Below are positions 15,437 through 33,800 of a stretch of DNA of 35,013 bases, piece after piece. The stretch's first letter is position 1; every line of letters starts with the position of its first letter. The notes under the pieces were generated by a model that saw nothing but the letters and a program-made list of their open reading frames with translations, was not told the DNA's origin and ran no database searches. The stretch spans positions 1-35,013 of the forward strand of contig KZ539076.1 of the NCBI GenBank assembly GCA_000934665.2, read 5' to 3'. This stretch comes from Catajapyx aquilonaris (Eukaryota). Position numbers and translations under genes: made by a program.

Positions 15437-16263
15437 TGTGTGTGATTTTTTGTGTGGATGATTTGTTTTTCCTTTTTTTTTATATATAGTGCAGGCAGAT
15501 TTTAAAAAAGAAGAAAAAGAGAGGCATTTTCCAATATTGTCGTTATGAAATCTCTCCGCCAACTGATGGGACTTAAAGGAGAGATTTTTTTTTTCACCTC
15601 AGAAGAGCCATTTTGGAAGAAAAAAAAAAGATGGAAAAGAGGGGGTGCTGCCATGGTTTGAAGAAAACATTTTAACGGGAACAATGTTTGGTGCAATCAG
15701 GTTCCGAAAAGAAAATAATATGAAAGATGGATTTTGCAAAATGAGGGTCACAAAGTGTTCCAAAGACTCCTGCATTTCTCCTATTTGCTCTTGGCTTGAA
15801 CATTCCAGTCTTGCCATTTTTTTGGGTTTTATTTCCAAAAAAAAAAACNTGTGTGTGATTTTTTGTGTGGATGATTTGTTTTTCCTTTTTTTTTATATAT
15901 AGTGCAGGCAGATTTTAAAAAAGAAGAAAAAGAGAGGCATTTTCCAATATTGTCGTTATGAAATCTCTCCGCCAACTGATGGGACTTAAAGGAGAGATTT
16001 TTTTTTTCACCTCAGAAGAGCCATTTTGGAAGAAAAAAAAAAAGATGGAAAAGAGGGGGTGCTGCCATGGTTTGAAGAAAACATTTTAACGGGAACAATG
16101 TTTGGTGCAATCAGGTTCCGAAAAGAAAATAATATGAAAGATGGATTTTGCAAAATGAGGGTCACAAAGTGTTCCAAAGACTCCTGCATTTCTCCTATTT
16201 GCTCTTGGCTTGAACATTCCAGTCTTGCCATTTTTTTGGGTTTTATTTCCAAAAAAAAAAAAC
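15437..16263. repeat. ~412-bp near-identical tandem duplication around a single N (likely unmerged contig overlap)
   Basis: 15437-15848 and 15850-16263 appear to differ only in homopolymer lengths; N at 15849. Confidence 0.85.
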
Positions 16264-17003
16264 AAATATGTGATGGGGATTTTTTTAAATATTGGGGGCC
16301 AACCCAGCAACATGAACATTGTAAAAACTGGTTTTAATAGAAAATCAACCCCTTAAAAAAAAAATCATGGTGCCAAAGGTGGGGGGAGAGGGTCGCGAGC
16401 CTTTTTTAAAAAAACAGAAAATGCGGAACGTTTGCGGATTTGGAAGAGAAAAAGAGAGCGTACGGCTTCCATTCCCTGCACCCGAAAGTGATTCATACTT
16501 TTTACTTTTAACGCGCATTTTTTAAAGGAGACTTGCATCACCGTCCAGCAGTTTTTTCCAGGCAGAGATGTGGGCTGAGCTTTGCATTGAGATTTTTTGA
16601 AACCAGTTTTTACCATGTGTATGTTACATTTCCACATGTTCCCAAAAATATATATATACTGGAAAAAAAATTCACTTTGTTTTTTTTTGGATGGAAATAC
16701 TTTTTTCCTGCTAGGTCATTCCAAGTAATGGGTAAATAGGCTTTCAGGGTGTTCAAATTTTCTTTACTTTTCCAATTTACCAAAACTTGTACGACTCTGG
16801 TTTCAAAGCGAATGAAAGATTTTTTTTTTTTTTCATTACGTGTTTCTTCCAACGAAATTTTTGATTGTTTAACGTGGTGGTCTCAAAAGATTCTTTATGT
16901 AAAGTACAGTATTGTGTGTATCGTGTACATCCTATGNCCCCCCCCCCCTCTTTTTTTTTGGTTTATTACAGAAACAATGTAACAGTACCCAAGGGTAGTA
17001 TAT

Positions 17004-17361: not shown

Positions 17362-18005
17362 TTAGTGCCTTCGCTTCCTTTTCCTAGATGGCTTGGAGCG
17401 GCGCTGCTCGTTTTCCTGCTGGGCTGCCCAGGTGAACAGGTCATCGGGGCTGGTCTTCCTGCTCCAGTCTTGCACTGGAAGGGTCACTATGGTTTTGGCG
17501 GCGAAGTCGGGGTATTTCACCACGTCCATCGGATTCTCCTCCTCCTCTTCCTCGTGCTCCTTGTGCTTGGCCTCCTTCCCAAAGTAGCAGTAGGCCGGAG
17601 ACGAGAAGATGCCGCCGGTCCGATAGGCTGCCAGGGACTCCCTGTATTTGTCCAGCGCATTTTCGTAGAAATGCACGTAGTAATCGTGTGGCTGGATGGG
17701 AATAGGCTTCAGCAAAGGATTGGGCAACTCGGACATCTTGTCCACCTCTGCATCCTGCGGAGTAGCCCGGTCAGTTGACATCTAGTGAAAATCCAGAGAA
17801 TTACATTTGAAATGTAAAGCGGTTACGCTTACAGAAGCTATTTTTTAAATACGTACAATATCTATCTGTTTTGAATTAGTGCCAAAAATTGCGGACTGTT
17901 ACGGGCAATTGGATCATGGCTTATGGAATTGTCACTTGCCACGGAAGTAAATGCAGGACTTACGTGACTCAGCGGCTTTTTTGCGACAGGGGGTTGTCCT
18001 GGCAT
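17362..18005 (-). CDS. Orphan array gene A, 153 aa, two exons
   Basis: Exon 1 18005-17964 (MPGQPPVAKKPLSH|gtaagt); exon 2 17781-17362 after ...cactag. Acidic run EEEEEENPMDVV, basic tail RRSKPSRKRKRRH. AATAAA near 17256-17261; X-box-like GTTGCCATGTAAC at 18100-18112. The most divergent member. Confidence 0.75.
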
Positions 18006-18247
18006 TGTTGGATATTGCGTTGGGTTTTACACTGATAAAATTTTAATGAAGCCCACGTTTCTTTTCAAGAACAATTTTGAATCCTTGTTGACTTATTACG
18101 TTGCCATGTAACCGAGCCAAGGCTGCCAACAAAGAAGAGTACTGACATCACAATGGCAACAATATATTTATTGATCATATCCTCTTTGGTGTATATTTCA
18201 GACAAAAATTTTTCTCCAGATTATTTTTCTCGGACAGCATCTCTTCA

Positions 18248-18587
18248 CTATGGTTCATCCGTGTCCATCTCCATGACATGTGATGGTCCTCCACCGTCAG
18301 CTTGCTTCTGTCCACCTGTGTTGTCGGACATGTCCTTGTTGCGGCTGGACTCACCACCACCAGCCCTTCCGGATCGGTAGCATTCTGACACAACATGAGC
18401 CGCAATAGAACTTAGCTTCTGGAGTCTCCTTCCCGTGTACTCCCCATTCTGTGTCCAATCCATCTCATCTACCATCATGGGCTCCTGATAATAATTACAC
18501 ATGCCTAATCAGCTTATTTCCTTCAAAATTTGCAAGCGGGACAGTTACCTCACTCTGGGGAGTCGTGTTCATTTCTTGGTCCGACAT
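18248..18587 (-). CDS. Orphan array gene B, 91 aa, two exons
   Basis: Exon 1 18587-18549 (MSDQEMNTTPQSE|gtaact); 64-nt intron; exon 2 18484-18248 (EPMMVDEMDW...MEMDTDEP*). Confidence 0.82.
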
Positions 18588-18636
18588 ATTTTTCTGGAGA
18601 CGATATGCTGGTTCTGTGACAATGATTTGTTTAATT

Positions 18637-18649
18637 GTTGCCTGGCAAC
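18637..18649. promoter_or_regulatory. RFX X-box (GTTGCCTGGCAAC) 50 bp upstream of the gene B ATG
   Basis: Exact fit to the GTNRCC-N0-3-RGYAAC consensus. Related motifs lie upstream of all ten array genes. Confidence 0.7.
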
Positions 18650-18812
18650 TACCTTGTAAATAATGTTGCAATAATTTCTGGCTTCTGTATGGCCTTGTCT
18701 TGCTGTCATTATACTATAGACTTTGGTGTAAACATATTTTTATTTCCCAACAGGATGCATCCAAGACTATAACTTCAGCATATCACACCGAACATATGAA
18801 CATCCGGCATCT

Positions 18813-19242
18813 TCACCTGGAACGTTGTTTTTCTTTCTTGGACTGCATCATCTTCCTCTTCTTTTCCACTGGCTCATCATGTTCCTCCTCCTCCATGTCC
18901 ATTGCCTCACCACCACCATCAGTATGCTGCCCACCATCTGTGGTGTCGGACTTAATGCAGCCAGCCTCATCATCAGTACATAGATTGCTCTCCCTCATTA
19001 GCCTCAGTCTGAACTCTAACTGTGCACGACGTATGAGCTCTTCCTTCTCTAACGTTCCCCACATGACTTCATCCTCCGTGTCCTCCTCCCTCTCATCTGA
19101 ATCCCATGAGTCCTGGTATACAAAAGGTTCCGGTGGTTCCTCCTCATCCTGAACGATGCAATTTGGACAAATATTTGGAGTCTGAAGTAATTGGATGGGA
19201 AGAAGATTGTGGACTTACCGAAGATTTATCATTGATGTCCAT
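18813..19242 (-). CDS. Orphan array gene C, 119 aa, two exons
   Basis: Exon 1 19242-19219 (MDINDKSS|gtaagt); exon 2 19148-18813 (DEEEPPEPFVYQDSWDSD...EKKRKMMQSKKEKQRSR*). Its segment SDTTDGGQHTDGGG...MDMEEEEHDEP is homologous to gene B SDNTGGQKQADGGG...MEMDTDEP. Confidence 0.8.
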
Positions 19243-19624
19243 ATTTTCAGGAGCGGACAATATTCCACTGCCGATTTTTGTACAGTACTGGTACTGTACA
19301 ATTGAGTGCTTATTCACCCGGTGTTGCCTGGAAGCATGTTGTGTCCTAATTGAAAATGTGCAAAACTGGAATTTAATTGTGCCTTATTTTAATATTTTCA
19401 GAACAAAACACGAGCCGGAACCAACTTATTCTGAAACGTTTAGTGCATGGTTCAAAAGTGTTTAATTTTGGTCGGATTGGCAACCGACTTGGACCCAACT
19501 TATTACCCAGAAATTTGGGCTGTTCCTTCTAATGTCCAAGGGACCAAATAAAGGCCAACTTCAAAAACATCCCTACTAATTAAATAAATAAATAAATCAG
19601 TCTCCATGGAATTTAATTGTCCTA

Positions 19625-19805
19625 CACAGGAATTTCATAATGAAACATTTCAAATCCAGGTTTCTTCCAAGACCTCCCAATTAATTAATTTTAAATGGAT
19701 AAAAATAAATAAAATTTTCTACCAAGGCGCAAGGCCCCACAATTAAGGAGCAATTAATTAATTATGAGACCTGAATTTGAAATGCTTCATTACAAAATTC
19801 CTGTG
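19625..19805. mobile_element. ~180-bp MITE-like element with ~40-bp TIRs, between genes C and D
   Basis: CACAGGAATTTCATAATGAAACATTTCAAATCCAGGTTTC pairs with GAGACCTGAATTTGAAATGCTTCATTACAAAATTCCTGTG. Confidence 0.72.
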
Positions 19806-19955
19806 CATCTGACATGTAAATGCCAGTGTAAGTAAAGGATAAATTGCCTTTTATTACTGCTGCAATTAAATTTGAAATCAGCTGGTTTTTCAATCTGGTT
19901 TATTCCTCAAGCACTCATAAATTTTATTTTGACAGAATCCACTCCCGAGCACACA

Positions 19956-21217
19956 CTATTTTTTTGGATATAATCTTGATGGTATTTTCCTTCCAGATCT
20001 GCTGCCTTGACCTCTGACGTGGCATCCATCATCCTCCGAATCATCGTCATCCATTGGTGGCGTAAACTTTTTCTTATCATTAAGAAGCTTTACTTTGAAC
20101 TCCTCGCGCTTCTTGGCCAGATATTTTCCGAAATAAGTGGCCTTACCTTCCTCGTCATCATCTGACCCATCACTGTCCAGGTCATCCAGGTCATCCGGAC
20201 TATCCTTGCTGGTTTTCCACTCCCCAAGATACCTCTTCTTGACCTCTTCATGCTTCAAGTCAAGGTAGCTTCCAGGTGGAGAGGGATCAGCCATCCACTT
20301 TACTTCAACGACCTTTGGATTAATGGCAAGTTTGTTCTCTACAATCTCTCCAATAGATTTCTTTCCGATCGCTTCATACTTTAAGGCAAAGTAGCTGCCT
20401 GTGGATGATGTAGACTTCCACTCTCCTTCTTCAGCTGGCTCATCGTCGTTCATGGCTGCCTGAAGCACCTTCTGTTTCAGATCTTCAAGCGCCTTCTTTC
20501 TCCGTTGTTCACGTCTCAATGCGAAGCTATTACGAGGTGCCTCACCGCCACCAGCTGTACGCTTGCCTTTACCATTCTCAGGCTTCTTGGCCTGCACACT
20601 AACGTCTCTCTTTGTAATCTTCTCACGAGTCATTCTGATCTTTTCATGCTTCACAGCAGAGGGGTTGGCGCTGGAAGAAGGCCTACTTGCACCAGCCTTC
20701 TCTTCTTCTTCTTCGTCTTCGGGCTCCTTTGGGATTTCCTGCTCTTTCTTTTCCAACTTATCAAGAGCCTTCTTTCTGTTCTCTTCCAGCTTCAAGGAAA
20801 AGTAGCTGCTGGTTGAAGATGGACGAGCGCTACCAAACTTCAACTCTCGTTCGTCGTCATCAGTGCCGTCGTCATCTGAAGCATCGTCGTCAATGCCGTC
20901 CGGAATTGGTTCCTTTTTCATGTCCTCAGGAGCCTTCCTTTTGCTTTCTGCATGCTTCAAGCTGTCTGTGGTAGAGTGTTTACCACGACCAGCCTTTGTA
21001 GATATGTTGAATTTTTGAGACAGTAGTTTTAGCTCCTGTGCTTTCTTTTCCAACTTGTCGCGATGCACCCGATTGTGACGACTCTGGCCCTTCTTCTTCA
21101 CCTTAATGGGCTGCTGATAAATTAGAACGCCATAATTAGCTTCTCTCCTTCAAAATTTGCAAGGGGCGCTTACTTTACCTTAGTACGTGGAGTAGTCGTG
21201 TTCTCTTTGCCAGACAT
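19956..21217 (-). CDS. Orphan array gene D, ~398 aa, two exons, internally repeated Lys/Glu/Asp-rich protein
   Basis: Exon 1 21217-21179 (MSGKENTTTPRTK|gtaaag); NAGNAG acceptor (cagcag); exon 2 21113-19956 is an open frame of 385 codons with repeated SYFxLKxEExRKKxL motifs. Confidence 0.88.
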
Positions 21218-21613
21218 ATTTAGGGAGAGGCGTGGGAAGCTGAATTCTGTGACCAATTTGGTTTGCTGCTTATTTAAATTTTGCATGCCTGGTAACGACC
21301 AAAGAATGTTATGTTGTTTTACATTGTTGTATATTCTCTCATCATGGCTCCAATTTTTAGGGGGAAAAAAATGAAGAATGCAGTATTTGTAGAGTAAAAT
21401 AATGTGAAAATTGTACTGCACTGCCACAATCGATTTGAATTGCGTCGGTTTTAATCGCATTTATTTGTCAAACAGAGAGGTTATGAAACATATCAAATTA
21501 GGATTTACTCCCAAAGCCCACACATTATTTTGTGTGTGTCGCACAGTCCGGAATGGTCTTGTTGTTGGGCCACCTCCAGCACTGCTGTCTTGGACCTTTG
21601 ACCCCACCCTCCT

Positions 21614-21960
21614 CTAAGTCCCCTTGGTCCCTTCTTCCATGTTCTTTGGCTCATCGAGGAGATCCTTCTTGTCCTTCTGAGCCTTCTCATCAAGTGTAGG
21701 TGGAGCCGGAGCATCCTCCTCACCACCACCTCGGACCAATAGTTGAGCTACCTTAGCCCCTAGGTTACACAAAGCCTTGTGGTAGTTGTACGCATCAAAG
21801 TAAGGATACTCTGGATGTTCCTGGTCCTCGACATCCTCCACCTTCAAGGGCTGCTGATAATAATTAAGACATGTTAATCAGCTTCTCTCATACATAACTT
21901 GCAAGAGAAAATAGTTACCGGTACCTCACTCTGTGGAGTAGTGTTCTCTTTGCCAGACAT
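21614..21960 (-). CDS. Orphan array gene E, ~91 aa, two exons
   Basis: Exon 1 21960-21925 (MSGKENTTPQSE|gtaccg; alternative in-frame donor 6 nt further on); exon 2 21853-21614 (QPLKVEDVEDQEHPEYPYFDAYNYHKALCNLGAKVAQLL...). Clear paralog of gene H. Confidence 0.87.
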
Positions 21961-22285
21961 TTTTAGAATGAAGAGAGATATGCTTATGGAGGGAAAATGA
22001 TTTGTTGTTTATCAGAAATAATTGTATCGGCCTAGTAACCATCTGGTCATGAGTGTTGTATAAATTGTTGAGTCTGTTATAAGTCGCATTTATTTGCAAA
22101 ACAAGCAGGAATTATATTCTGACACAATTAAAATCATGAGCCACACCCCCAGAGTTTGTGATCTTTTCGAGCTCCCTGCAGAATGGCTGTCTTGACCTCT
22201 GACCTGGCCTCCTCTTAACCACTCTTGGTCTCCATTTATATCCTTTGGCTCATCGTATAGTCAGTGCCTGCAATCTTCTTTTTTT

Positions 22286-22598
22286 CTATTCATCACGAGT
22301 CTTCCTGATCTTCCTGATTTGTTCACTCTTCCAGAATTCGTATGAAGAGCCATCTTCATCATCACCATACTTTGTGTTGTATTCTTGCACCATTGTGCCC
22401 AGCTCCTTCAATCTCTTTTCCAATGTCTTCTTGGCAAACTGCGCTCGATCATGAATTTTTGGTTTCTCCTCGTTCACCTTCGTGGGCTAACCGATAATAA
22501 TAATGACATAAATCAGCTTCACTCATACACATAACGTGCAAGAGGAGATAATGGCTTACCTCACTCTTGGGAGTAGTGTTCTTCTCTTTGTCAGACAT
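22286..22598 (-). CDS. Orphan array gene F, 79 aa, two exons
   Basis: Exon 1 22598-22560 (MSDKEKNTTPKSE|gtaagc); exon 2 22486-22286 (PTKVNEEKPKIHDRAQFAKKTLEKRLKELG...). Confidence 0.82.
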
Positions 22599-23078
22599 CT
22601 TGTAGGGAGATGTGCTGGAATAATTCTGTGACAAACGTCAGTTGTTGATAGAAATTGGATTTCCCTGGCAACCAACTGGTCAAGTATGTTACATATTGTT
22701 TCACATCGTTAGAATATTTTTCTATAAATACTTTTGATCGACTTCGTCCATGCGATTTTATGCACGTTATTATGGAATGTATGGATATTGTGTGATATCG
22801 ACAAAATTGTGTGCTAGAATTTATTTCACCAATATCATGGTACAGTGTGTGCTATAGTTTCTGTGGAAGTAAAGGATAAAATGCCAGCTGTCGCCAATCA
22901 ATAGAAAGTGAATCGGTTTCAATATAATTTATTTGTTAAACGCACAGATTTTTAAGCATTTCAAATCAGGATTTACTCTCAAGCACACACATTAATTTTT
23001 TGTTTTGGTTTTTAGTACAGTCCGGAATGGTCTTGTTTGTGGGTCGCCTCCAGAACTGCTTGACCCTATGACCATTTC

Positions 23079-23395
23079 TTAACCACTCTCATTAGTTTCT
23101 TCTTCCATGTCCATTGGCTCATCGTCTCCCTTGGCTTCTGGGATATACTTGTCTGTCTCAGCATTCATCTCGAACTCTTCCAGCTGAGCGAGCAAGATGC
23201 CATGTTTCTCCTCCAATATTTGAGCTATCTTGTTCTTTAGGTCTATTATCTTCTCAAGATATCCTGTGTGGGACTCCTAATAATAATAATTAGATACCTT
23301 AAAGTTTCTCTCCTTCATATAATTTGCAAGGGGGGGGGGGGAGAGAAAATATTTACCTCACTCTGGGGAGCAGTGTTCTCTTGTTTGACTGCCAT
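23079..23395 (-). CDS. Orphan array gene G, 78 aa, two exons (absent from the ORF track)
   Basis: Exon 1 23395-23357 (MAVKQENTAPQSE|gtaaat); exon 2 23276-23079 ESHTGYLEKIIDLKNKIAQILEEKHGILLAQLEEFEMNAETDKYIPEAKGDDEPMDMEEETNESG*, homologous to H (LEEFE..AETDKKDIPGAKGD). Confidence 0.85.
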
Positions 23396-23549
23396 CCTTT
23401 AGGGAGTTGTGCTTGGAAGTCGAATTATCTTGTAGAATTTTATGTTGTTTGTCGAATTGAGCCTGCTTGGTAACGTTCATATTGTTGTGTGTTAATATCG
23501 TTGTCCTGGTGACAGGAATTGTGTAATGATCAATCTTGAAGTGAGCGAG

Positions 23550-25448
23550 TTATGAAATGTACGGATATTTTGTGTGCGTCATGGACTGGTTTATTTTCGC
23601 CTTGTTTTTGCAATGCTGCTTACATGAATTGCACCACAGTTCAATACCGATCGCCATCAAGGACAGGGCGATTCCAAATAAATAAATGAAAAACGTGCCT
23701 TCATACCTATGAAGCGACAGTCTTATTTCGCCTTCAGAATAGTGTCCTCCACTTTGTCTGGTGGCTCTGGCTACATTCAAGTGGTGCAGATGAGCCAGGA
23801 AACTACTTCTCTTTTCCTTCAGACCAATCGACTCAAACACTTGCATCCAAAAGTTGATGTTCTCTGAATACACGCTCTGTTTGGGCAAAGCAACAGAATG
23901 GTATATGAGGGCCATGTGGTCTCTGGATGTTATAGTCTTGCGATCGTCGCACTTTCGAGATGATTCGATCGCACTTTGTATCCGATACCCTGTGCTCATG
24001 CAGACGTGTCTCTCTGTCAGCATACCGTCGACACACTCTTTCATATCGTCTGTCTGAATAGAATTGTCCAGAAATTCACGGTACTTAACCTTGGTGTATT
24101 GGTCCATGTTGGCCAACATGCCTTCGTACACTTGGCGCTCCCAAATGACTTGGAAATCTGATGCACACAGTTCGTCCAGACTGTTTGGGATTGTTTCTTT
24201 CGGAGGCGACATTAGGAAGTTGAACAGGTTGCTCTTGTATCCTGTGGTGAACACTATTGAAAAGCAGATTAGGAGGAAGAGAAAAATACGTGACGATGAC
24301 AACACAACGGTTTTCTGATGCTGCTGATCAAACAGTATCCGTACCAGACTCAGCAGCACAGAGTCGCAACTTTTGTATCGCCGTGATTGTGATAAAAAAC
24401 GTGACTGAACATAGTCTGTCATACGCATTTGCAATGCGCATACAATAAGCGTAGTAATGAAACAAATCCACGGCACTGCTTGGTACGGAAGGATTAATAA
24501 AATATGTGGAGTTATTATAGGTAGAGGTTGTCGACTCACGAAAGTCAAAGGGTTGACTTCTCTAGTTGCAGCAAAGTCCACCACTTGAAGCATCAATTCA
24601 AGCTGCATTATGTCCAACAAGTATGGTATCTTACCACTCTTGATGTCAGCCAAGAATTCCAATCCGGTTTTAACATCTGTGACAACATCGATGAAATCTT
24701 GTCGTCTGACCTTCCACTTGAAATTGAGCGCTTGTCCCAAAAAACAAAAGTGAATGTACACCACGTAAGGATCGCAATTAGTGTAATTAGTTTCCTGGTA
24801 ATAATACGTGCTGTTCCATAACAATCCATTGAAGTTCCTTGCAGTGTCTGGAAACAGGGTTTGCAGTGTTGGCAAGCCTTCAAACGAGTAGTTGCCCAAC
24901 TCAACAATAGCAGGGCTACCATTGTTGCAGAAGAAGCAAGTTGAGTGCAAGTGTTGTTTGGTCACTGCGACTTTGTACTTGATTTTGGAAACATGATCTT
25001 CCAAAAGGTAGTTCACATCATCTGAGTCTCTCAGCCAAAAGATGAAGCGATCTTGGTTCTTTTTGGTGAGTCCCACCAGCTGGTCCATTAGTGACTCGAA
25101 ATTGTCGGAACAACTGGTGACAACATGGATCGAGCAGGAATGAGTCGGACTGGTCCAATAATCGTCCGAATCGTCCAATTCGAACGATTCGGAACAATTC
25201 AGTGAACTAAGTGCGTCGGAATTCCTTCTGATAATCACTGGTCTTCCTGTGAATGTCACAAAATTGTCAATAATGGACACTGGAACTGAACCGTGTAGGT
25301 CGTGAGTGAAAACCAGTGTACAATCAGGAGGAAAGTTTCTGCTCACAAGAAGTCTGACGAATGACAAAATTGGTGACATCTGTTGCACGACACTGATGCT
25401 GGAGACTGACATTTGAAGTAGGACGAAAATACCTGTTGACGAAATCAT
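23550..25448 (-). CDS. Divergent ionotropic receptor (IR, iGluR-related chemosensory receptor), intronless, ~632 aa
   Basis: Hydrophobic N-terminus; LFPD..RNFNG before S1; VDF...LTFVSRQP; M1 LLILPYQAVPWICFITTL; pore segment LLSLVRILFDQ; SSRIFLFLLICFSIVFTTGYKSNLFNFLMSP (xYxxNL motif); PNSLDEL; terminal TM LSLHRYEGTFFIYLFGIALSLMAIGIE. First ATG at 25448; the track start at 25469 is a GTG. Confidence 0.9.
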   Translation of the reverse strand: MISSTGIFVLLQMSVSSISVVQQMSPILSFVRLLVSRNFPPDCTLVFTHDLHGSVPVSIIDNFVTFTGRPVIIRRNSDALSSLNCSESFELDDSDDYWTSPTHSCSIHVVTSCSDNFESLMDQLVGLTKKNQDRFIFWLRDSDDVNYLLEDHVSKIKYKVAVTKQHLHSTCFFCNNGSPAIVELGNYSFEGLPTLQTLFPDTARNFNGLLWNSTYYYQETNYTNCDPYVVYIHFCFLGQALNFKWKVRRQDFIDVVTDVKTGLEFLADIKSGKIPYLLDIMQLELMLQVVDFAATREVNPLTFVSRQPLPIITPHILLILPYQAVPWICFITTLIVCALQMRMTDYVQSRFLSQSRRYKSCDSVLLSLVRILFDQQHQKTVVLSSSRIFLFLLICFSIVFTTGYKSNLFNFLMSPPKETIPNSLDELCASDFQVIWERQVYEGMLANMDQYTKVKYREFLDNSIQTDDMKECVDGMLTERHVCMSTGYRIQSAIESSRKCDDRKTITSRDHMALIYHSVALPKQSVYSENINFWMQVFESIGLKEKRSSFLAHLHHLNVARATRQSGGHYSEGEIRLSLHRYEGTFFIYLFGIALSLMAIGIELWCNSCKQHCKNKAKINQSMTHTKYPYIS

Positions 25449-26109
25449 TTTAGGAAGAAAATTGAGCACAGAAATCCTTCACAGCGCACATGATAGATTT
25501 TCAACGATGAAACTAAGTCCTTCGTGAAATACCTGTAACGCACTGACTATACGTGTCATGAATATTTTGTGTCTATGATGACAAACATTATTCTGTGAAT
25601 TCGACATCAATCACAATGAACTGTTTCATCTTTGAAGCGGAACATGTACCCACGAATGAAATCGTTGAGCATTCCAAATGCTGAAGGTTGTAACCCATGG
25701 TGATATCGACAAAACTGATATTCACTGTCAGCATTTTTGCGCTCATTTATAGCTCAGAATTGAAGCTATTGAATATCAGAAAAAAAGCTAGAGTATTATC
25801 AAGTGATAGTGAATTTTCATACCACCATTTTCCTGCATTTCTTTTACGTGGTTGAAGATTAATTTTACCAACATCACCATCATAATTATAAAACTTGCAT
25901 TACTTAGTTCTTTGGAAGTAAAGTTACTGCAACAATATTGAGTCGGGTTTCAATCGAATTTATCTGTCAAACACACACAGGTTTTTAAAAAACATATTAA
26001 TTCAGAATTTCGCCCCAAACACAGACAATAATATTTTTGATTATCGCACAGTCCAGTTGTTGAGTCACATCCAGCACTCCTTCCTTGACCCCATTGACCC
26101 AACCTTCTC

Positions 26110-26490
26110 TTAACCCTTAGACCCTCCTCCAATGTCCTTTGGCTTCTCATCGCCTTTGGCTCCGGGGATATCCTTCTTGTCAGTCTCAGCACGAGTCAAT
26201 TTCTTCTCGAACTCTTCCAGAGTAGGTATAGCGTACGAGATGCCCGGGTCCTCCTCGCCAGTGGCAATGAGTTGAGCTACCTTGGTCTTCATGTTCCTCA
26301 TGGCCTTCTGGTAGTTATACTCGTCATAGTAAGGATGCTCAGTGTTTGGCTGTTCCTTCTCCACCACCACCTTCTTGGACCCCTGATAATAAATTAGATA
26401 CCGTACCTTAAAATTGTTATCTTCAAGAATTTAAGAGGGGAGATAATATACCTCACTTTGTGGAGGAGTGGTCTTCTCTTTGCCAGACAT
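26110..26490 (-). CDS. Orphan array gene H, 103 aa, two exons
   Basis: Exon 1 26490-26452 (MSGKEKTTPPQSE|gtatat); exon 2 26382-26110 (GSKKVVVEKEQPNTEHPYYDEYNYQKAMRNMKTKVAQLI...). Confidence 0.87.
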
Positions 26491-26618
26491 CTTTTAGGGT
26501 GATTATAAGATGTGCTGGGAAGTCGAATTCTCTGGAACGTGTGTTGTTTATCGAATTTGTACTGCTTGGTAACGACCTTGACAGTTGTTAACATTGTTGC
26601 GTATTTTTTTGTAATGTT

Positions 26619-26632
26619 GTTGCTCTGGTAAC
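26619..26632. promoter_or_regulatory. X-box-like element upstream of gene H (second, distal site)
   Basis: GTTGCTCTGGTAAC. The homologous distal site upstream of gene G is GTTGTCCTGGTGAC at 23500-23513. Confidence 0.55.
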
Positions 26633-26774
26633 AGGAGTGACGAACTATTCAATGAAAGTCCTCACGATGTTGTGTTTCAGTATAGTAAATATTTATTAGA
26701 AATTTACATGACTTTTCGTCCATTTTCCACACGTAAATTATTCTTGCTCAGCAGCATTTCCTGTCCTATACGTT

Positions 26775-27107
26775 TTAATCGGTATCCACCTCCATCGGAG
26801 TCGAATTGTCGACTGATGTCCCAGTATCAACATTCTTGTGGACACCAGCCCTTCCATAATATGGATTGTTGGCTGCCAGTATTGTATTGGCTGCAAGACC
26901 ATCCGCCTTTTTCTTAAGACGCTCCAACTTTTGCTTGAAGTAGCTCATGAACTTCAAGTGACCATCGAATGAATTGGAGTTTCTAATCATTGGCAGTGTC
27001 TGCTGCACCTCCTGGTCCACCTCCATGGGCTGCAGGTTATTGCAAAAAAAAAAAAGCTGTCAAGAGTCAAGGTTTGACATAATATTGTCACTTACCTCAT
27101 CAGTCAT
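26775..27107 (-). CDS. Orphan array gene I, 88 aa, two exons
   Basis: Exon 1 27107-27096 (MTDE|gtaagt); exon 2 27029-26775 (PMEVDQEV...FMSYFKQKLERLKKKADGL...TPMEVDTD*). Confidence 0.8.
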
Positions 27108-27445
27108 GGTTTTAGGAGCTGTGAATATAATTCGATGCAGAATGCTGATTGTGCAAATAGTAATGTTTGTTGACTGGAATTCGCATTGTCTGGCAACGCA
27201 CTGTCTTATTTTTTTTAAGGATAACATCATTGTATCATTGTAATTCTGTAACAATACATTTTAATCATCCTAATACGCAGGCATTGGGTAAATATAACCA
27301 TCTTTATTCACATTCTCTAATGATGATTAAATTAGCTCATTATTGTATATGGTTCACTCAATCCCTTGATTTTTTTTAGATAAAATCGCATGATATTGTT
27401 GCAATGCTGCCGGAATTTAATTCAAATATCTTGTTAATTTAGTAA

Positions 27446-27947
27446 TTATTTTTCACGATGGCGCTTCCATGGAGTGTCTGTTTTTTCCTCCAGTTGCTGC
27501 TGTTGCTGCTGTTCCTGACCTCCAACGTCCTGGATGCTCATCCTGTCGTTCGGAGGTTGCATGGCAGGAGCATTCTGTCCGCTGCCTCCCTCGGTGTCCA
27601 GGTCCATCAGGGACGTGTTAGTCCGTGACCCTTGACCCTGCTGCTGACCATCGAAGCTGAAGGGCTTGGACCAACGATAGGTCAGTGGCAGGCGTTGTTG
27701 CCTGTAGGAACTAATGATGCTGTCGCACCAATCACTGACCGATGTCTGATGTTCAGGAGACGGTGGAGCACCATCTTTGTCCACATCCATAGGCTGATTT
27801 AAAAATAATAATAATTATGTATAGTCGTAGACATATACTGGTACTGTCACACTGCGTTTCAACCGTTGCGATAGGAGACGTGGAATTGGAGGAACTTACC
27901 TCTGACTCCTCGGATATTACGGAGTTATTGCCCTCAGGAAAAGACAT
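27446..27947 (-). CDS. Orphan array gene J, 131 aa, two exons
   Basis: Exon 1 27947-27900 (MSFPEGNNSVISEESE|gtaagt); exon 2 27793-27446 (PMDVDKDG...LMDLDTE...QQQQQQLEEKTDTPWKRHREK*). Confidence 0.8.
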
Positions 27948-28166
27948 TTAAAATTTTTTTGTAATTTAATTTTGAGATGGAAAATCAGAAGGCAAAATTA
28001 TCTGTGTTCTTGAAAATTTTGAGCGGTTGTTGAACAATTTTGTTTGCCAGGAAACGTAACAATGTGCCTGGCCGATTGTGTGATCAGAGAGGTAATAATT
28101 AATTGACATTTATTTATTTTATTTATTTATTTGACACATTATTCCACATTTTTGGGGTGGATAGCA

Positions 28167-30505
28167 TCACATTTTGGCAACTCTTTTAGCAAGTGTTCGT
28201 ACTGCTGCGAATATCTCTTCTCCGCTTGGTATGATGTGCTCCGGAGGCAGTACAAACCCGTATTCACCTGTGTCTCGTAATTCGACAGAATAAGCATATT
28301 TTATTCCAACAACACCTTTCGCCCAATCGCTGGCCGATCCAGACGCCAAATCTGTTCAAAAGAAAAGTTCAAAGTTCAAGGACCTGTCGCATTATTATTG
28401 TGGTTAAAAAGTGCAATACTCACATAGCAAGTCGGGTATGGTACCTGCGATGTACCTGGTATTGTTCACTAAAAATATTGAAGTCACCGCATCTGACGCC
28501 AATGTTTTCTGCAAAAAATGATATTTAAAAAATATATATACCAATTTAGAATTTTTTTTGCAAATTTCTTCTGATTAGAAACGTACCAGGTCGTCGATAT
28601 CAGAAGGCGTCTCTCTGGCATAACCCCAAGGTAGAAGCCAATACTGTAGAATGAGTTGAACTTAATATTAATGTATAATTAGCATAATTAATGTAAATGT
28701 ACCTGACCGAAGCTGTGAAAGTTGATGTACAATTTGATTCGATCTTTATTATTCGCCAAGAATTCAGACATAGCCTTGGTTTCAGGTTCAGAGAAAGGGT
28801 ATGCTCCTCTGAAGTTGAGAGAGCAAGGGTCTGAACTTGCTCCTCCTTCAGCTGTATAAGTTGTGAATAATATTTGTCAATTATTTTAATATCAATAATT
28901 TAAACAGTATTAGACACACTGTACCGTCAAAGTGAAAATCATAGTTGCGATTAGCATCAGCTCCTCTGCATCCACTGGATGGGACATTGTTGGACCGAGT
29001 TTTTCGCCAAAGTCTATCCTGCAAAAAAAATTCGCACATTTTGTTAATCCAGATTTTGCTCAAGTAGCCTACTTACTGTATTGTGAGTGTATTCATATCC
29101 GTCCACGTTAAGTACAGGAAGTATGTACCAGTCGACCGCATCAACAATATCTTTGTTGTGAGTGTAATTAGTCACAAGCTGGTTAATAATGTAAGTGACA
29201 GTCGCTGGTGAAATCCATTCTCTAGCGTGGATGCCTGAGGTCAAAGGTCAAAATAGGAACATATGACTAATTAAAAAGTGGTTATCAATTTTCGGCATAA
29301 AAACAGTTGGCTATCAAAAGTAGCTGCTAATATTAGATAGATTTGAATCATCTTAATTTTTTAAATTTTAATCACATAATTACCGCCATCAAAAAATATG
29401 GCTGGTTTTGACCCAGAATTTCCGCCGCTTGAAATGTGAATTAGTCTCATATCTCTTTCCTCATAACTTGTGCCTATTGACTTCACAGAAGCTAGATGCG
29501 GATAGTTCGCAGCCAGTGTGTCCATCCAATCATAGATCTGCAAAAAAGTTTTTTAAACAGTAATTTTTGTAGTTGAAAATAAGGCGTTAACAAAATCATT
29601 AATGAAAAATTTGCGGTAAATTAACTTTTCCGCCCGAAAAATGTTTTCCTGGGGTTGGTGCAACCAGAGAAAACTTACCGCTGCAATGGTCAAAATCACT
29701 AAAGAAGTATTAATTGTGGTTAAGTCAACATTTCCGGTTCTTTTCCCGCCGAAAAATGTTTTCTAGGGGTTGGTGCAACCAGAGAAAACTTACCGTCTGA
29801 AATGGGTCTACAACAAAATTGTTTTAAATGAAATACTGCATATGAAGTAAACTTTTCCGGCAGGAAAATATTTCCTGGGGGAGTTGGTGCAACCAGAGAA
29901 AACTTACCCCTGCAATGGGTCTAGAACAAAATCATTAATGAAGTATGAAATTGCTGTAAAGTGAACTGTTCAGTCTCTTTTCCGGCCGGAAAATGTTTTC
30001 TGGGGTTTGGTGCAACCGGAGTTAACTTACCGTCTGCAATGAGTGGTAACTTTTCCAATCCATTTTATCCCCTGATATCTCTTTGGTCTTGTCAATCGCC
30101 CTGCGATAAAACATTAATTTAAAAATGCAATCGCAATTATTATTTTTTAAATGTGTCGCTTTACTTTTGAACATCTTGAATGGTTATGATGTACTTAATT
30201 CCGTGCTGATCCAAGTACTCTTCAAACTGTATTTTGTACGTGTCTGACACCATTATTGTTGTCGGATCACTCAGGTTCGGTTCGCTCCAAAAATCGACCT
30301 CAACATTTTGTCTCATGTGCAGAAGACGTTCCATGAACATCTTGTTGGTCGCATTAACCGAATACACCTGGTGGCTTTAAGGATTTAAGTAGTTTAATAC
30401 AGCTCACGACACTTCAATCGCCCTGTAGACTTACCCATTGTAAAGCTTGATGGATGAAACAGTGCAAAAAATTGCGGACAGGAGTACGAATACTTGTGTC
30501 TTCAT
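28167..30505 (-). CDS. M14A zinc carboxypeptidase (A/B-like preproenzyme), 10 exons, ~410 aa
   Basis: Exons 30505-30435, 30374-30165, 30100-30031, 29537-29384, 29234-29077, 29018-28925, 28851-28703, 28643-28587, 28508-28424, 28351-28167, all phase-consistent. Signal peptide, propeptide (VDFW), GIHAREWISPA, WRKTRS, DANRNYD, FSEPET, FHSFGQ, LYLASGSASDW, VELRD. Confidence 0.95.
29590..30040 (-). repeat. Four ~115-bp tandem units in carboxypeptidase intron 3; three duplicate the exon-3 donor junction
   Basis: CATT[G/T]CAG(A)CG|GTAAGTT..CT..GGTTGCACCAA..CCC.AG.AAA.ATTTT recurs, with donors at 30030, 29907, 29793 and 29678. Confidence 0.85.
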
Positions 30506-30878: not shown

Positions 30879-33800
30879 TTAGTAAAATTGCCTTCCAGCC
30901 AAATTTTCGTATTTAACTTTCCGCATTGCTATTCTTATCCAGTGTTGTCCAATGTCAGCCACAGCTCGCTTCACAGCCGGTCGAACTTCTTCCAAAATGG
31001 CATCGGCGTTGGTGTTAACAAAGGCTGATCCTGCTTCTCCTGTTAATATATTTGGGGGGGGGTGTTTGAAAACATCGAAAAATATTAACCAAAGTTTGAA
31101 TATCTAAAAGTTAACCACTATCAGTAAAATTAGTTTGAAACTGCTTAAATGTGAAAATCTTTCATATGTGAATGTCAAATTTTAATCGGAGATTTGCACT
31201 AACATTAATGGCATTAATGGACGGTTAACTCTCAAGTAAAGTGGCATTCAACTATTTTCAAATGTGACTTTAGAAAAATAATCCTCACTCAGCACTGGAT
31301 CGTTGTCGAAAAGTCCGTTGAGTCTCATAGTGACGTTCTCATACGAATAGTCCAATTCGGATTCAATCGGATAGTATCTCATATCTCCGTCTATTTCCTT
31401 ATAGGTAAAATTGGTCGTACCATTAATCAAAACATTACCTGAAAAGCAAAAAAGTTCATTTAGAAAAAAACAGAAAATTTTTCTATCTGACGTCATGGGC
31501 TTGAGTGACGTCAGTCACACGCGAAGTGACGTCAGACTAAAGTTTAAATTAATGCTTCATATTTTTTGGAGGAAAAAATTCAGGCAACTTACTCAATTTA
31601 AACCAGAAAGTTCCGTCTCCTTTGAGTGGAACGAGCAAAAACTGTGCGTCCATTCGGTACCGACCATTCGGGTACACTTCGTTGAACCTGACTTGATAAG
31701 TGGCCTGCCTTTTAGGAAAGTCGATGCTGGGGGGAAAAAAAATATAAATGAAAAAGCTGAGCCAAAGTACAAAGAGCGCAAAATGTTCGAGGGGAATTTA
31801 CTTCAATTTGAGCAGATCAAAGTCCGTGAATCCTTTGAACCTGATGTTGCTAAAAATGGCGTGAATGAAGTTGTTTCCGTCGTCTTCGTGGACCGCTATG
31901 TCTTCTGCTGGGAGGTTCGATAGGGAAGGAAGGTCCAGGTCCGGAATTCCTGTTGGTAAAGGCATAGAATGAAGTACTATAGCTGACAAAAAAGATGGGG
32001 GAAAATACGAAATTGAACCACATTGCCGAAGCTTAGCAAATCTCGCACATAGATGGCGCACACTACTGATGACTCACCGCGGACAAACAGAAACCACATT
32101 CTAAATAAGATTAAGCTTGACGCACTGATTTTGTCGCGAAATAAAACATTGGCACATATTCCTCCAGAACATGTTACAATATTTTTGACAATTACAGGTT
32201 GACTTTTTTTTTGTTACCTCAGGGCTCACGTGAAGAAAGCAACCGAATTGACCTTCTGGTGTAACCTTGTCTGCCGAAAAATATACGAGGTCAGCAGAAC
32301 CTGGGATGGGTGACCCCTAATTTGGGATGACCATGCAGAGAAGGTCGCCACAAATAAATGTCTCCTTAGTATGCAATGAACATAATAATATTTTTCAACG
32401 GGGGGAAATTAAGGAGTTTGTTATGTTATACGATTATTGTCTATTTTCCTATTTTCATATCTATATCAATGTTATTTTTATTACATACTATTGTTTTATT
32501 AAAATTAAACGATATAATTATGCTACCAGAGTAATCCAATGGAATCTGTTTCACCTTAGAAAAATATTTTGGTATTCATGTACTTATTTTTAAGCATTTA
32601 CTTTTGCACTATAACTTTTAGGGGTCATCAGGAGATATTAAATCATTGATTCAAGATGTGAATTTTAATGAATGTCCTATTTTGTGTAAGGTTGCCACGT
32701 GCCTAGTGATTGAGAAACACCTGCCAGGTTTAATTCCCTTGCATAATGTGCACTCGTGAGTTATTATATCTGAAATGCAGACGTCCTCGGCAAAAAAAAA
32801 ACCTGTCGCCATAGTTTGCCTTCTAAAAAGCCATTAACCTAGCATGAAAAGCAAGGGTGCGTGACCTTCGAAGCAATTGCGCAACAGGTCATGACACTCA
32901 ATATTGCGTTTTAAGATCGGTTGAAAAAAGGTGGGATTGTATTATTTTCATGTCAGTGGGCAAGGTGTCTAAATTAATTATATTCACACTTGGCACACTT
33001 TGCTTAATAATTATGGAATGGGAGGTAATTAATATGATTGAGACTGCATAATTTATGAGAATATTTAAGCACAATATTTGATCAATCACTGGGAATGTTT
33101 TGTCTACTCGTATATCATCATGAAAGCACAGAAAATGGTTACATATTAATTTCATTTACACATGCTGCTAACTAGCATCGTATTTAAACTTACCTTCTTC
33201 CAGCAAGGGTCGAACTTCCTTGATAAGTTTGATGAGACATGGCTCCAGATCCTCTCTCGGTGTGTCCAAACATGTCGTAAATATTGCATCTGACAAAAAA
33301 TGTAATCCAATATATTATAAAAGTGTAAGTAAAAGTGTAATGGGCGTATTTACACGACTCGTTAGACTTGCGATTGGATCTGTACGCCCCTTCAATGTAA
33401 TTGCTAATGTAGCTCTAATTGCGCAGATTTTTTAAACAGATAAAAACAAGGTAGCGGATGCACAATACACCATGTAATAGAATGCTAATGAGTACTTGAA
33501 CCAACAACACTATTTTATTCCGCACTGTCTCTCGTGTGTGATAACAATTCCGACCATGACACTTTGTGCTTAGAAAATGCTTTTAAAAAAATTAAGGAAA
33601 AAAAAACCCAACCTCGTGGCCTAAACAAAACCGGTCGGAAACCTTGTAAACAACCGGGATTTTGTACCGCCTGGACTTGACATCAATTTTTTTAAACAAG
33701 GATAAGGAGATTTTGCAATTGCACTAGCCAGTAATTACATTTTTATCAATAATAATGTTGAGATATAAAGTCACGGCAAGACCATGTTACTTGAGAAACA

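Follow-up and report, generated by a model that had tools for sequence, protein, structure and literature searches.

A tandem array of ten small two-exon gene models with an upstream X-box-like motif in an arthropod genome

The stretch of DNA analyzed here (the window, 35,013 nt from an arthropod genome) carries ten two-exon gene models (A-J) for proteins of 78-398 aa on the minus strand of positions 17362-28055. Six of them (B, D, E, F, G and H, the core genes) are clear paralogues, judged by the promoter, exon 1 and intron that they have in common at the DNA level. In addition, we report as a new finding that the ten genes all have an upstream motif in agreement with the consensus sequence of the RFX X-box. 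As an explanation for the locus as a whole, we tentatively put forward a taxon-restricted, tandemly duplicated family of small coding genes that may be co-regulated through this RFX-type X-box.

Gene models and paralogy of the core genes

Our rebuilt models agree with the first-pass annotation, which had described ten same-strand genes with two exons, a first exon of 12-48 nt and products of 78-398 aa (Table 1). All predicted donors are GT, all acceptors AG and all introns in phase 0, with predicted intron lengths of 182 nt in A, 64-80 nt in B-I and 106 nt in J. Conservation extends to the splice sites and, in most units, to the poly(A) signals. For gene A, an alternative product of 139 aa, starting from the ATG at 17781, is possible. 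The array also encloses a non-member, an intronless ORF resembling an ionotropic glutamate receptor (Pfam Lig_chan, E 7.3e-7 and 29.5 bits, below the cut-off of 30.8; PDB GluD1, E 6.4e-4).

The exon 1 peptides of the core genes, MSDQEMNTTPQSE (B), MSGKENTTTPRTK (D), MSGKENTTPQSE (E), MSDKEKNTTPKSE (F), MAVKQENTAPQSE (G) and MSGKEKTTPPQSE (H), agree with each other, and a six-copy DNA repeat family spans this exon, bearing out the earlier proposal that it is common to all six genes. Exon 1, the intron, the start of exon 2 and the 3'UTR are all covered by DNA repeat families; one such repeat connects the last ~23 codons of D with the 3'UTR of F. When promoter, exon 1 and intron (the 5' module) were combined into an nhmmer profile, this retrieved the six core genes at E values of 1e-46 to 1e-59, and its remaining matches in the 35-kb window were the promoter of I (E 0.034) and a chance-level match inside exon 2 of D (E 4.4). 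In shuffle tests, exon 1 reached z values of 4.5-13.7 in all 15 core pairs and the intron z values of 6.6-14.6 in 13 of the 15, with low values for E-H (2.4) and F-H (1.4). The similarity of the introns can exceed that of exon 2, as seen for B-D (z 14.6 vs 4.8) and D-G (10.7 vs 2.3). Among the proteins, H is closest to E (pairwise blastp, E 2.4e-22).

The motif (Q/E)P-x-[KEDM]-V, previously assigned to the exon-2 start of six genes, indeed occupies this position in B, D and E, whereas it straddles the exon junction in F, I and J. The 5' module shared by the core genes at the DNA level supports the notion of a tandemly duplicated family. Duplication of whole units, as originally suggested, applies to E, G and H, which are related from the promoter to the 3'UTR, and weakly to D-F, whereas the other core pairs share the 5' module only, so that simple duplication followed by divergence is not the whole story.

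Table 1. Positions of the gene models, upstream sites and enclosed ORF in the window.
Feature	Position	Strand	Details
Gene A, weak member	17362-18005	-	exon 1 17964-18005 (42 nt), exon 2 17362-17781 including stop; donor GTAAGT; 153 aa
Gene B, core	18248-18587	-	exon 1 18549-18587 (39 nt), exon 2 18248-18484; 91 aa; 5'-module profile E 6.6e-54
Gene C, weak member	18813-19242	-	exon 1 19219-19242 (24 nt), exon 2 18813-19148; 119 aa
Gene D, core	19956-21217	-	exon 1 21179-21217 (39 nt), exon 2 19956-21113; 398 aa
Gene E, core	21614-21960	-	exon 1 21925-21960 (36 nt), exon 2 21614-21853; 91 aa
Gene F, core	22286-22598	-	exon 1 22560-22598 (39 nt), exon 2 22286-22486; 79 aa
Gene G, core	23079-23395	-	exon 1 23357-23395 (39 nt), exon 2 23079-23276; 78 aa
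Gene H, core	26110-26490	-	exon 1 26452-26490 (39 nt), exon 2 26110-26382; 103 aa
Gene I, weak member	26775-27107	-	exon 1 27096-27107 (12 nt), exon 2 26775-27029; 88 aa
Gene J, weak member	27446-27947	-	exon 1 27900-27947 (48 nt), exon 2 27446-27793; 131 aa
iGluR-like ORF, non-member	23550-25448	-	within array; intronless, 632 aa
A X-box-like site	18100-18112	-	GTTACATGGCAAC; 1 mismatch; 107 nt before ATG
B palindromic X-box	18637-18649	-	GTTGCCAGGCAAC; 0 mismatches to GTNRCC N1 RGYAAC on both strands; 62 nt before ATG
C X-box-like site	19323-19335		2 mismatches
D X-box-like site	21284-21296		
E X-box-like site	22027-22039		
F X-box-like site	22660-22672		
G X-box-like sites	23462-23474; 23500-23513		proximal, 2 mismatches; distal, 1 mismatch
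H promoter sites	26561-26632	-	26561-26573, proximal, X-box-like, 2 mismatches; 26619-26632, distal, perfect X-box, GTTACCAGAGCAAC
I X-box-like site	27185-27197		
J X-box-like site	28043-28055		

Coding status and predicted proteins

Exon 2 evolves in a frame-preserving manner. When E, G and H are compared with one another (three pairs), all 15 exon-2 indels are multiples of 3 (sizes 3, 18, 15; 54, 9, 6, 9, 3; and 54, 9, 3, 6, 9, 3, 15), whereas 3'UTR indels are not (e.g. 1, 10, 2, 1, 5, 4, 5), which argues that the exons are coding. Codon position 3 is the most divergent in seven of seven pairs, tying with position 1 in E-G. We consider it very probable that the array represents a real coding family. 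Its fast evolution, already assumed in the earlier description, is reflected in dN/dS values of 0.49-0.79 in six of seven pairs (dS being saturated in B-E) and in many in-frame indels. Values of ~0.5-0.8 are also expected under relaxed constraint.

The proteins had been described as largely disordered and devoid of signal peptides and transmembrane segments, in agreement with our measurements. Relative to the charge-hydropathy line, all ten lie on the disordered side (GRAVY -0.76 to -1.70). The 8-residue hydropathy in their first 30 residues reaches at most 0.64, giving no sign of the signal peptide that would mark secreted small peptides, and their 19-residue Kyte-Doolittle mean peaks at 0.67, giving no sign of a transmembrane segment. 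AF2 models contain one helix (pLDDT 82-85; exon-2 residues 21-42 in E) and coil elsewhere, and the products are predicted to consist of one amphipathic helix with disordered acidic tails. In D, the helix motif S-x-Y-[FL]-x-L-K-x-E is present in 4-5 internal copies. The acidic motif [PA]M[DEM][VM][DEV], which was defined post hoc, has seven occurrences when the window is translated in all six frames, and each of them falls in the reading frame of a gene model (A, B, C, G and J once each, I twice).

The acidic and largely disordered proteins may follow a shared plan that comprises an N-terminal peptide (for the core genes, MS.KE.NTTPQSE), a (Q/E)P-x-x-V junction motif, a single aromatic-led amphipathic helix (4-5 times in D) and an acidic P-M-[DE]-[VM]-[DE] motif, with a basic tail in some members. 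Such proteins could serve as adaptors or regulators acting via short linear motifs, with the helix and the acidic motif binding one common partner and exon 2 free to diversify.

As noted before, no known family is recognizable. Pfam returned no family at E <=1 for eight of the ten proteins and one chance-level match each for H and I (E 0.12 and 0.082); PDB sequences gave no matches at E <=1 for D and for the core profile, 1,835,955,588 representative proteins none at E <=0.001, and metagenome contigs no homologue of the array proteins. These blank searches are consistent with lineage specificity of the array genes. Close relatives may be unrepresented in the collections, because the receptor-like ORF likewise found no match in the protein collection and because a conserved p120 exon yielded matches of 88-94% identity only.

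The upstream X-box-like motif

Scored against the RFX X-box consensus GTNRCC(0-3N)RGYAAC, as given in PMC5752003 and PMC10530576, all ten genes contain a site with a 1-nt spacer and at most two mismatches at -62 to -108 from the ATG. Eight of the ten proximal sites have two mismatches, mostly in the second half-site, and, as read from the sites listed, a perfect monomer site (GTTRCY) is found at the proximal position in nine genes. The 35,013 nt contain two distinct perfect X-boxes, both within the array, one in B and one at the distal site of H, as well as nine further loci elsewhere in the window with at most one mismatch. The pattern GTTNCCNRRCA has 8 matches vs 1.36 expected, a number reached in none of 100 shuffles, and the motif columns hold 1.31 bits vs 0.42 in the flanks, as calculated from ten paralogous and non-independent promoters.

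In A, E, F, G, H, I and J, the start of the X-box is followed at a distance of 8-27 nt by a same-strand forkhead-type site (RYMAAYA; ~5% expected per gene; present at 3 of 23 control X-box-like sites elsewhere), and no consensus Fox site lies beside the X-box in B, C and D. X box and Fox sites paired at close spacing near the start of Rfx/Fd3F targets, whose X boxes frequently have a single strong half-site, have been described by Newton et al., 2012 (PMC3414849). According to Laurencon et al. [quoted passage not shown]

RFX-type regulation of the array is a possibility that we put forward with some reserve. Each unit would be a complete and very compact transcription unit, in which a promoter of ~110 bp or less is succeeded by the short coding exon 1, a 64-182-nt phase-0 intron, exon 2 and the poly(A) signal. 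The ten genes would be co-regulated through the RFX-type X-box 62-108 nt before the ATG, in most cases with a forkhead-type site alongside, and would be switched on jointly in RFX-positive cells. The fit to the X-box leads us to predict that these cells are, as may apply to arthropods in general, ciliated type I sensory neurons or spermatids, two options that appear about equally likely if the array is RFX-regulated. Ciliated cells in Drosophila are type I sensory neurons and spermatozoa, and a reference title in the same source refers to Rfx expression in spermatids and brain (PMC2375033).

Alternative readings and related systems

A, C, I and J, the weaker members, have ties to the array through architecture, the short acidic motif and the promoter motif only, and they could be unrelated small genes or non-genes whose strand and layout match by chance, with the family limited to the core genes. 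In line with this idea, the core protein profile gave none of the four a significant score among 463 window ORFs (I E 12, J E 19; A and C absent among the matches listed), so that the division into core and weaker members in the first-pass annotation is retained. Moreover, A, C and J go undetected by the 5'-module DNA profile, blastp links are weak (best E for A 0.49 or worse; I-J 0.18) and A is also readable as an intronless 139-aa ORF. However, A, C, I and J all have the spacer-1 X-box-like site in the same place and a P-M-[DE]-[VM]-[DE]-type motif, absent outside the array frames in the six-frame translation (AMDME in C, PMEVD twice in I). The exon-2 starts of I (PMEVD) and J (PMDVD) resemble EPMMVD in B, the helix motif of I matches the D repeats, and the C-terminus of C resembles that of B (E 6.5e-4 in a 10-sequence database). 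Gene A, finally, is colinear with E in its N-terminus and helix, and its exon 2 start (MS..TPQ..EVD) is colinear with core exon 1 plus the exon-2 start. We lean towards a single family of all ten genes and regard a core-only family as distinctly unlikely. It is highly improbable that the array is non-functional, consisting of mobile-element copies, duplicates in decay or non-coding transcripts whose ORFs are due to chance. The blank homologue searches would suit such an origin, as would dN/dS values of up to 0.79 and an exon 2 that has diverged as much as the 3'UTR or more (E-G, K 0.53 vs 0.31), but the ten intact open frames, the exon-2 indels that, unlike those of the 3'UTR, preserve the frame (15 of 15 in E/G/H), the excess of third-position differences (seven pairs, with the tie in E-G), the conserved splice sites and, in most units, poly(A) signals all speak for function, as does the 5' module, of which no copies were found beyond the array in the 35-kb window when it was examined as a possible transposon.

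It is also conceivable, albeit unlikely in our estimation, that the same coding family has a non-ciliary expression, e.g. in testis, stress or development, and that the upstream palindrome is bound by a non-RFX factor or acts as a core-promoter element. Rapid evolution, amplification in tandem and promoters of very short length would also suit orphan genes with a non-ciliary, reproduction-related role. Furthermore, most proximal sites retain one good half-site and have two mismatches, their spacer is always 1 nt vs 2 nt in the classic Drosophila palindrome (PMC3414849), and a lone X-box is not predictive (PMC2375033). Against this, the conserved core GTT[GA]CC-N-RGCAA corresponds to the published RFX monomer/dimer site (PMC5752003, PMC10530576), the sole two perfect X-boxes in 35 kb fall within the array, and the forkhead-type site follows in seven of ten genes, similar to known Rfx/Fd3F targets (PMC3414849).

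Extending our preferred explanation of RFX-type co-regulation, one may speculate, as a long shot, that the array arose by lineage-specific expansion and encodes a new class of disordered proteins that associate with cilia or flagella, under the control of an RFX/Fox promoter cassette, with a uniform 5' module and a diversifying exon 2. The promoter, exon 1 and intron would then be kept near-uniform by selection or gene conversion, and D would have multiplied its helix. If true, the 5' cassette of the locus would be fixed while one exon varies, an arrangement that could supply new partners for a single target in cilia or sperm.

Endosulfine/ARPP-19-type phosphatase inhibitors and kinase inhibitor peptides are small regulatory proteins of ~80-130 aa that are largely disordered and have one short helix or aromatic motif. 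The array proteins resemble them in size, disorder and a single helix or aromatic motif as a possible docking element, a likeness of general features; they have no Pfam Endosulfine match, and we do not claim membership. With Drosophila Rfx/Fd3F (FoxJ1-type) ciliary genes such as nan, iav and Dhc93AB, the array shares an X-box-like site near the start codon and, in seven of its ten genes, an adjacent RYMAAYA site (PMC3414849). Unlike them, its products resemble none of the known ciliary proteins in Pfam and among the representative proteins, and it comprises ten paralogues, whereas the Rfx/Fd3F ciliome genes are conserved and single-copy; Rfx/Fox dependence and ciliary localization of the array are putative. 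Like insect orphan families, a taxon-restricted gene class (PMC3590893), and amplified male-germ-line genes for disordered proteins, exemplified by mouse Laidx (PMC7263670), the array combines amplification in tandem with small, disordered and fast-evolving products that lack detectable homologues. The array has no sequence relationship to these families, and its expression in testis is only possible. Unlike most de novo orphans, it has a shared, conserved promoter-exon 1-intron module together with a recognizable cis-regulatory motif.

Gene models, reading frames and genomic setting

All ten predicted two-exon genes of the array (A–J) were rebuilt from the sequence on the minus strand, with the layout proposed in the first-pass annotation. 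Each begins with an ATG-initiated first exon of 12-48 nt, followed by a phase-0 intron with a GT-start donor and an AG-end acceptor (64-80 nt in B-I, 106 nt in J and 182 nt in A), and the products comprise 78-398 aa. The exon-1 consensus and the exon-2 start reported earlier were also correct when re-read from the sequence. An AATAAA or ATTAAA signal is found within 200 nt of the stop codon in nine of the ten genes; H lacks it within this distance, yet retains the signal-flanking block that is conserved in E and G. The ORF track of the window misses one array gene and splits the others, so that automatic annotation is likely to lose these genes.

The reading frames of the array bear the marks of coding sequence. 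When exon 2 is aligned between E, G and H in the three possible pairs, 15 of 15 indels are multiples of three (3, 18, 15; 54, 9, 6, 9, 3; and 54, 9, 3, 6, 9, 3, 15 in the respective comparisons), and the 3'UTR indels of the same genes have arbitrary sizes, such as 1, 10, 2, 1, 5, 4 and 5. Nei-Gojobori dN/dS values amount to 0.58 for E-H (88 codons), 0.71 for G-H, 0.49 for E-G, 0.79 for D-F, 0.65 for F-H and 0.68 for E-F, with dS being saturated for B-E. Moreover, the divergence K of exon 2 equals or exceeds that of the 3'UTR (0.53 vs 0.31 for E-G, 0.44 vs 0.41 for E-H). Together, the in-frame indels, the dN/dS ratios and the high divergence of exon 2 indicate that the frames are maintained while the proteins change rapidly, and the fast evolution claimed previously is thus borne out by ratios of 0.49-0.79 in six pairs and an exon 2 that has diverged at least as much as the 3'UTR.

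The proposal that the proteins belong to no known family agrees with our searches of Pfam, PDB, protein and metagenome collections, none of which yielded a significant match. Eight of the ten proteins have no Pfam family at E 1 or below, and H and I each show one match at chance level (E 0.12 and 0.082, respectively). Among PDB sequences, there was no match for D or for a profile of the core genes (B, D, E, F, G and H), and an exhaustive HMMER search with this profile against 1,835,955,588 representative proteins returned none at E 0.001 or below. The protein of gene A alone retrieved two candidates, neither of them scoring, and none of 120 pattern matches of the E/H alignment in metagenome contigs was confirmed by tblastn. 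However, these blank searches are weakened by the fact that the receptor-like ORF inside the array also has no relative in the protein collection, and close relatives of the organism may not be represented in the collections. At Rfam gathering thresholds, the window contains no match, which gives no reason to assign the conserved intron or 3'UTR to a known RNA. Two short-motif readings were rejected: a KEN-box in exon 1, since K-E-N is kept in D and E only, and an Endosulfine-like motif, which lacks Pfam support.

The window itself is eukaryotic and of arthropod origin (see table). One exon of its armadillo-repeat gene is 88-94% identical to catenin delta-2/p120 proteins of many insects, crustaceans and chelicerates among the matches listed (the best 120, with 4386 of 6499 candidates at E 1e-10 or better). 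The ORF between G and H, which is not a family member, has a weak similarity to Pfam Lig_chan (E 7.3e-7, slightly below the cut-off) and matches GluD1 among PDB sequences at E 6.4e-4; its sequence suggests an ionotropic receptor of the chemosensory type that has diverged strongly. The window contains 58 N positions, and its first kilobase has a GC content of 0.198 and an AT skew of -0.61, with a homopolymer that yields poly-F or poly-K from every reading frame. Nearby, the p120-like locus harbors in its 5' part an element present three times, two copies of which are inverted, with 15 protein letters common to their ORF translations. An element of ~330 nt is present in two almost identical copies, whose ORF translations share long identical stretches; a repeat element or a duplication at this site is the probable explanation.

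Features of the window and their positions
Feature	Position	Strand	Location and remarks
T homopolymer, ~500 nt	~450-960	plus (A on minus)	
Three-copy element, copy 1	1617-1838	minus	5' part of p120-like locus
Three-copy element, copy 2	2543-2839	minus	5' part of p120-like locus
Three-copy element, copy 3	2752-2976	plus	5' part of p120-like locus
Armadillo-repeat (p120-like) gene		plus	Upstream of array; Arm repeats E 1e-10 to 6e-16
~330-nt element, copy 1	15567-15902		Between p120-like gene and gene A
~330-nt element, copy 2	15990-16337		Between p120-like gene and gene A
Ten-gene array	17362-28055	minus	
Gene A, start of exon 2	17736-17781	minus	Met-Ser and TPQ..EVD stretch
Intron repeats (D10)	18493-18539, 21120-21166, 21862-21908	minus	Core introns
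Gene D, last ~23 codons	19956-20030	minus	
Receptor-like ORF	23550-25448	minus	Intronless, 632 aa; inside array, between G and H
M14 carboxypeptidase gene	28167-30376	minus	With activation propeptide; downstream of array, same strand
JHBP/takeout-type gene	30879-32073	minus	Downstream of array, same strand

Mosaic paralogy within the array

The six core genes are paralogues, although their likeness differs between regions. Shuffle-based z-scores for the 15 core pairs are 4.5-13.7 for exon 1 in every pair and 6.6-14.6 for the intron in 13 pairs, with low values for E-H (2.4) and F-H (1.4), and range from 1.0 to 12.3 for the promoter. Exon 2 shows clear likeness only for E-H (22.4), G-H (13.1), E-G (9.8), D-F (8.5) and D-E (6.4), and the 3'UTR for E-G (24.7), E-H (20.8), G-H (17.4), D-G (8.0) and E-F (8.0). 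DNA repeat families comprise exon 1 (D2, six copies), the intron (D10, three copies), the exon-2 start (D7, five copies, I among them), the poly(A)-signal region (D9 and D19) and a 3'UTR block (D17). When run over the window, a nucleotide profile built from the 5' module (promoter, exon 1 and intron) detects the six core genes at E 1e-46 to 1e-59; its only two other matches are the promoter of I (E 0.034) and a chance-level hit in exon 2 of D (E 4.4). The duplication of whole units, as suggested by the first-pass annotation, therefore holds for E, G and H, whereas the other core genes mainly have the 5' module in common.

The nearest neighbor of a gene changes from region to region, with D-G and B-D being closest in the intron, E-H in exon 1 and E-G in the 3'UTR. 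From this mosaic, we infer that the 5' module is either constrained or subject to gene conversion. The core intron is as conserved as exon 1 and contains a block, ..CTTGCAAAT.., that may act as a control element within the intron or, alternatively, represent a trace of gene conversion. The combination of a uniform 5' module with a diversifying exon 2 makes the array a useful case in which the roles of selection and gene conversion can be compared for gene families of young age.

The remaining genes A, C, I and J had been considered more weakly linked, in line with the finding that the core protein profile retrieves none of them. Applied to the 463 ORFs of at least 40 aa in the window, it recovered only its six training members, with I and J scoring E 12 and E 19, respectively, and A and C absent among the 30 matches listed. 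On sequence grounds, these four genes are joined to the core by position, strand, layout, an acidic motif, short local similarities (the B-C tail and the D-I helix) and the promoter motif, without demonstrable global homology. Exon 2 of A begins with its own Met-Ser and TPQ..EVD, colinear with core exon 1 plus the exon-2 start. Translation of A may start from the ATG at position 17781, and the intron typical of the family may be absent from this gene, so that its predicted upstream coding exon may be 5'UTR. All results on the array derive from the 35-kb window itself and from database searches. The array very probably represents a real gene family that could not be recognized before; as a putatively taxon-restricted set of genes in tandem, it is of a kind already familiar.

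Predicted architecture of the proteins

As proposed, the proteins lack transmembrane or hydrophobic segments (19-residue hydropathy maximum of 0.67 over all ten) and appear disordered, as the charge-hydropathy line assigns all ten to the disordered class. AlphaFold2, provided with the six-sequence alignment, models exon 2 of E as a single helix (residues 21-42, pLDDT 82-85) within low-confidence coil; the mean pLDDT of the whole model is 64. Aromatic residues open the helix (E, YNYHKAL; H, YNYQKAM; A, VHFYENAL). In D, the helix element S-x-Y-[FL]-x-L-K-x-E is clearly present four times and a fifth time in degenerate form, and the helix of I is similar to these copies (64% identity over 14 residues). 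A single-sequence model of A, with two short helices and a mean pLDDT of 51.7, was too poor for use. The acidic motif [PA]M[DEM][VM][DEV] lies near the C-terminus or directly at the exon-2 start. Translated in all six frames (70,026 residues), the window contains seven instances of it, each within the reading frame of an array gene (one in A, B, C, G and J, two in I); defined post hoc from these proteins, it demonstrates specificity rather than providing an independent test. We propose that the products would be disordered, motif-bearing proteins that dock via one amphipathic helix and the acidic motif. At its end, the coding sequence of D shares ~23 codons by homology with a 3'UTR block of F (D12), which is also repeated downstream of the stop codons of E, G and H in their 3'UTRs, so that the reading frame of D seems to have been extended into a former UTR.

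An X-box-like motif in the array promoters

An alignment of the upstream regions revealed one block common to all ten genes, GTT-N-CC-A-GGCAA, and this X-box-like promoter motif is a new observation. It fits the RFX site, published as GTNRCC(0-3N)RGYAAC with the monomer GTTRCY (PMC5752003, PMC10530576). Only two distinct perfect X-boxes exist in the 35,013 bases, at -62 nt (B) and -142 nt (H) from the ATG; one-mismatch versions are found in A and at a distal site of G homologous to the distal site of H. A spacer-1 X-box-like site with up to two mismatches lies 62-108 nt before the ATG in ten of ten genes. Loci with up to one mismatch number 13 in the window, four in array promoters and nine elsewhere. 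The string GTTNCCNRRCA matches 8 times vs 1.36 expected, a count reached in none of 100 shuffles, and these matches represent seven distinct sites, six in family promoters and one inside the receptor-like ORF. The 13 motif columns carry a mean of 1.31 bits, compared with 0.42 in the flanks. Readings of the palindrome as an NFI, EBF or STAT site, judged by their consensus sequences, were rejected because the conserved GTT[GA]CC fits an RFX half-site better. A second conserved block, ..CCAGCACATCT.., is located ~25-35 nt before the ATG and, by comparison with the initiator consensus, may be an initiator. Laurencon et al. caution that an X-box by itself is not predictive and name conservation as the useful criterion (PMC2375033); in the array, conservation is among paralogues only.

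A forkhead-type site (RYMAAYA) follows on the same strand, 8-27 nt past the X-box start, in seven of the ten genes, with ~5% expected per gene; among 23 X-box-like control sites located elsewhere, 3 have one. We hypothesize that the ten compact units are switched on jointly via the RFX-type site, aided in most of them by a forkhead partner site, and the X-box/Fox signature predicts expression in RFX-positive cells, which would be either spermatids or ciliated sensory neurons such as those of chordotonal organs. Rapid evolution, expansion in tandem, promoters of very small size and conservation of the UTRs are in keeping with genes of the male germ line. The Fox pairing, in turn, is consistent with sensory or motile-cilia genes. 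The ciliated cells of Drosophila comprise type I sensory neurons and spermatozoa, and the title of a reference in the same paper mentions that Rfx is expressed in spermatids and brain (PMC2375033).

The array carries a specific, testable regulatory prediction. If expressed as predicted, it would constitute an unannotated ten-protein family; if not expressed, it would be an ordinary lineage-specific duplicate cluster. To our knowledge, little has been learned about genes that joined the RFX regulon in a taxon-restricted manner, and a fast-evolving tandem set would illustrate the recruitment of new genes by a conserved ciliogenic regulator. As described by Newton et al., Drosophila Rfx/Fd3F targets have closely spaced X-box/Fox pairs near the start, and their X-boxes frequently possess one strong half-site only (PMC3414849); seven of the ten array genes display a candidate pair of just this type.
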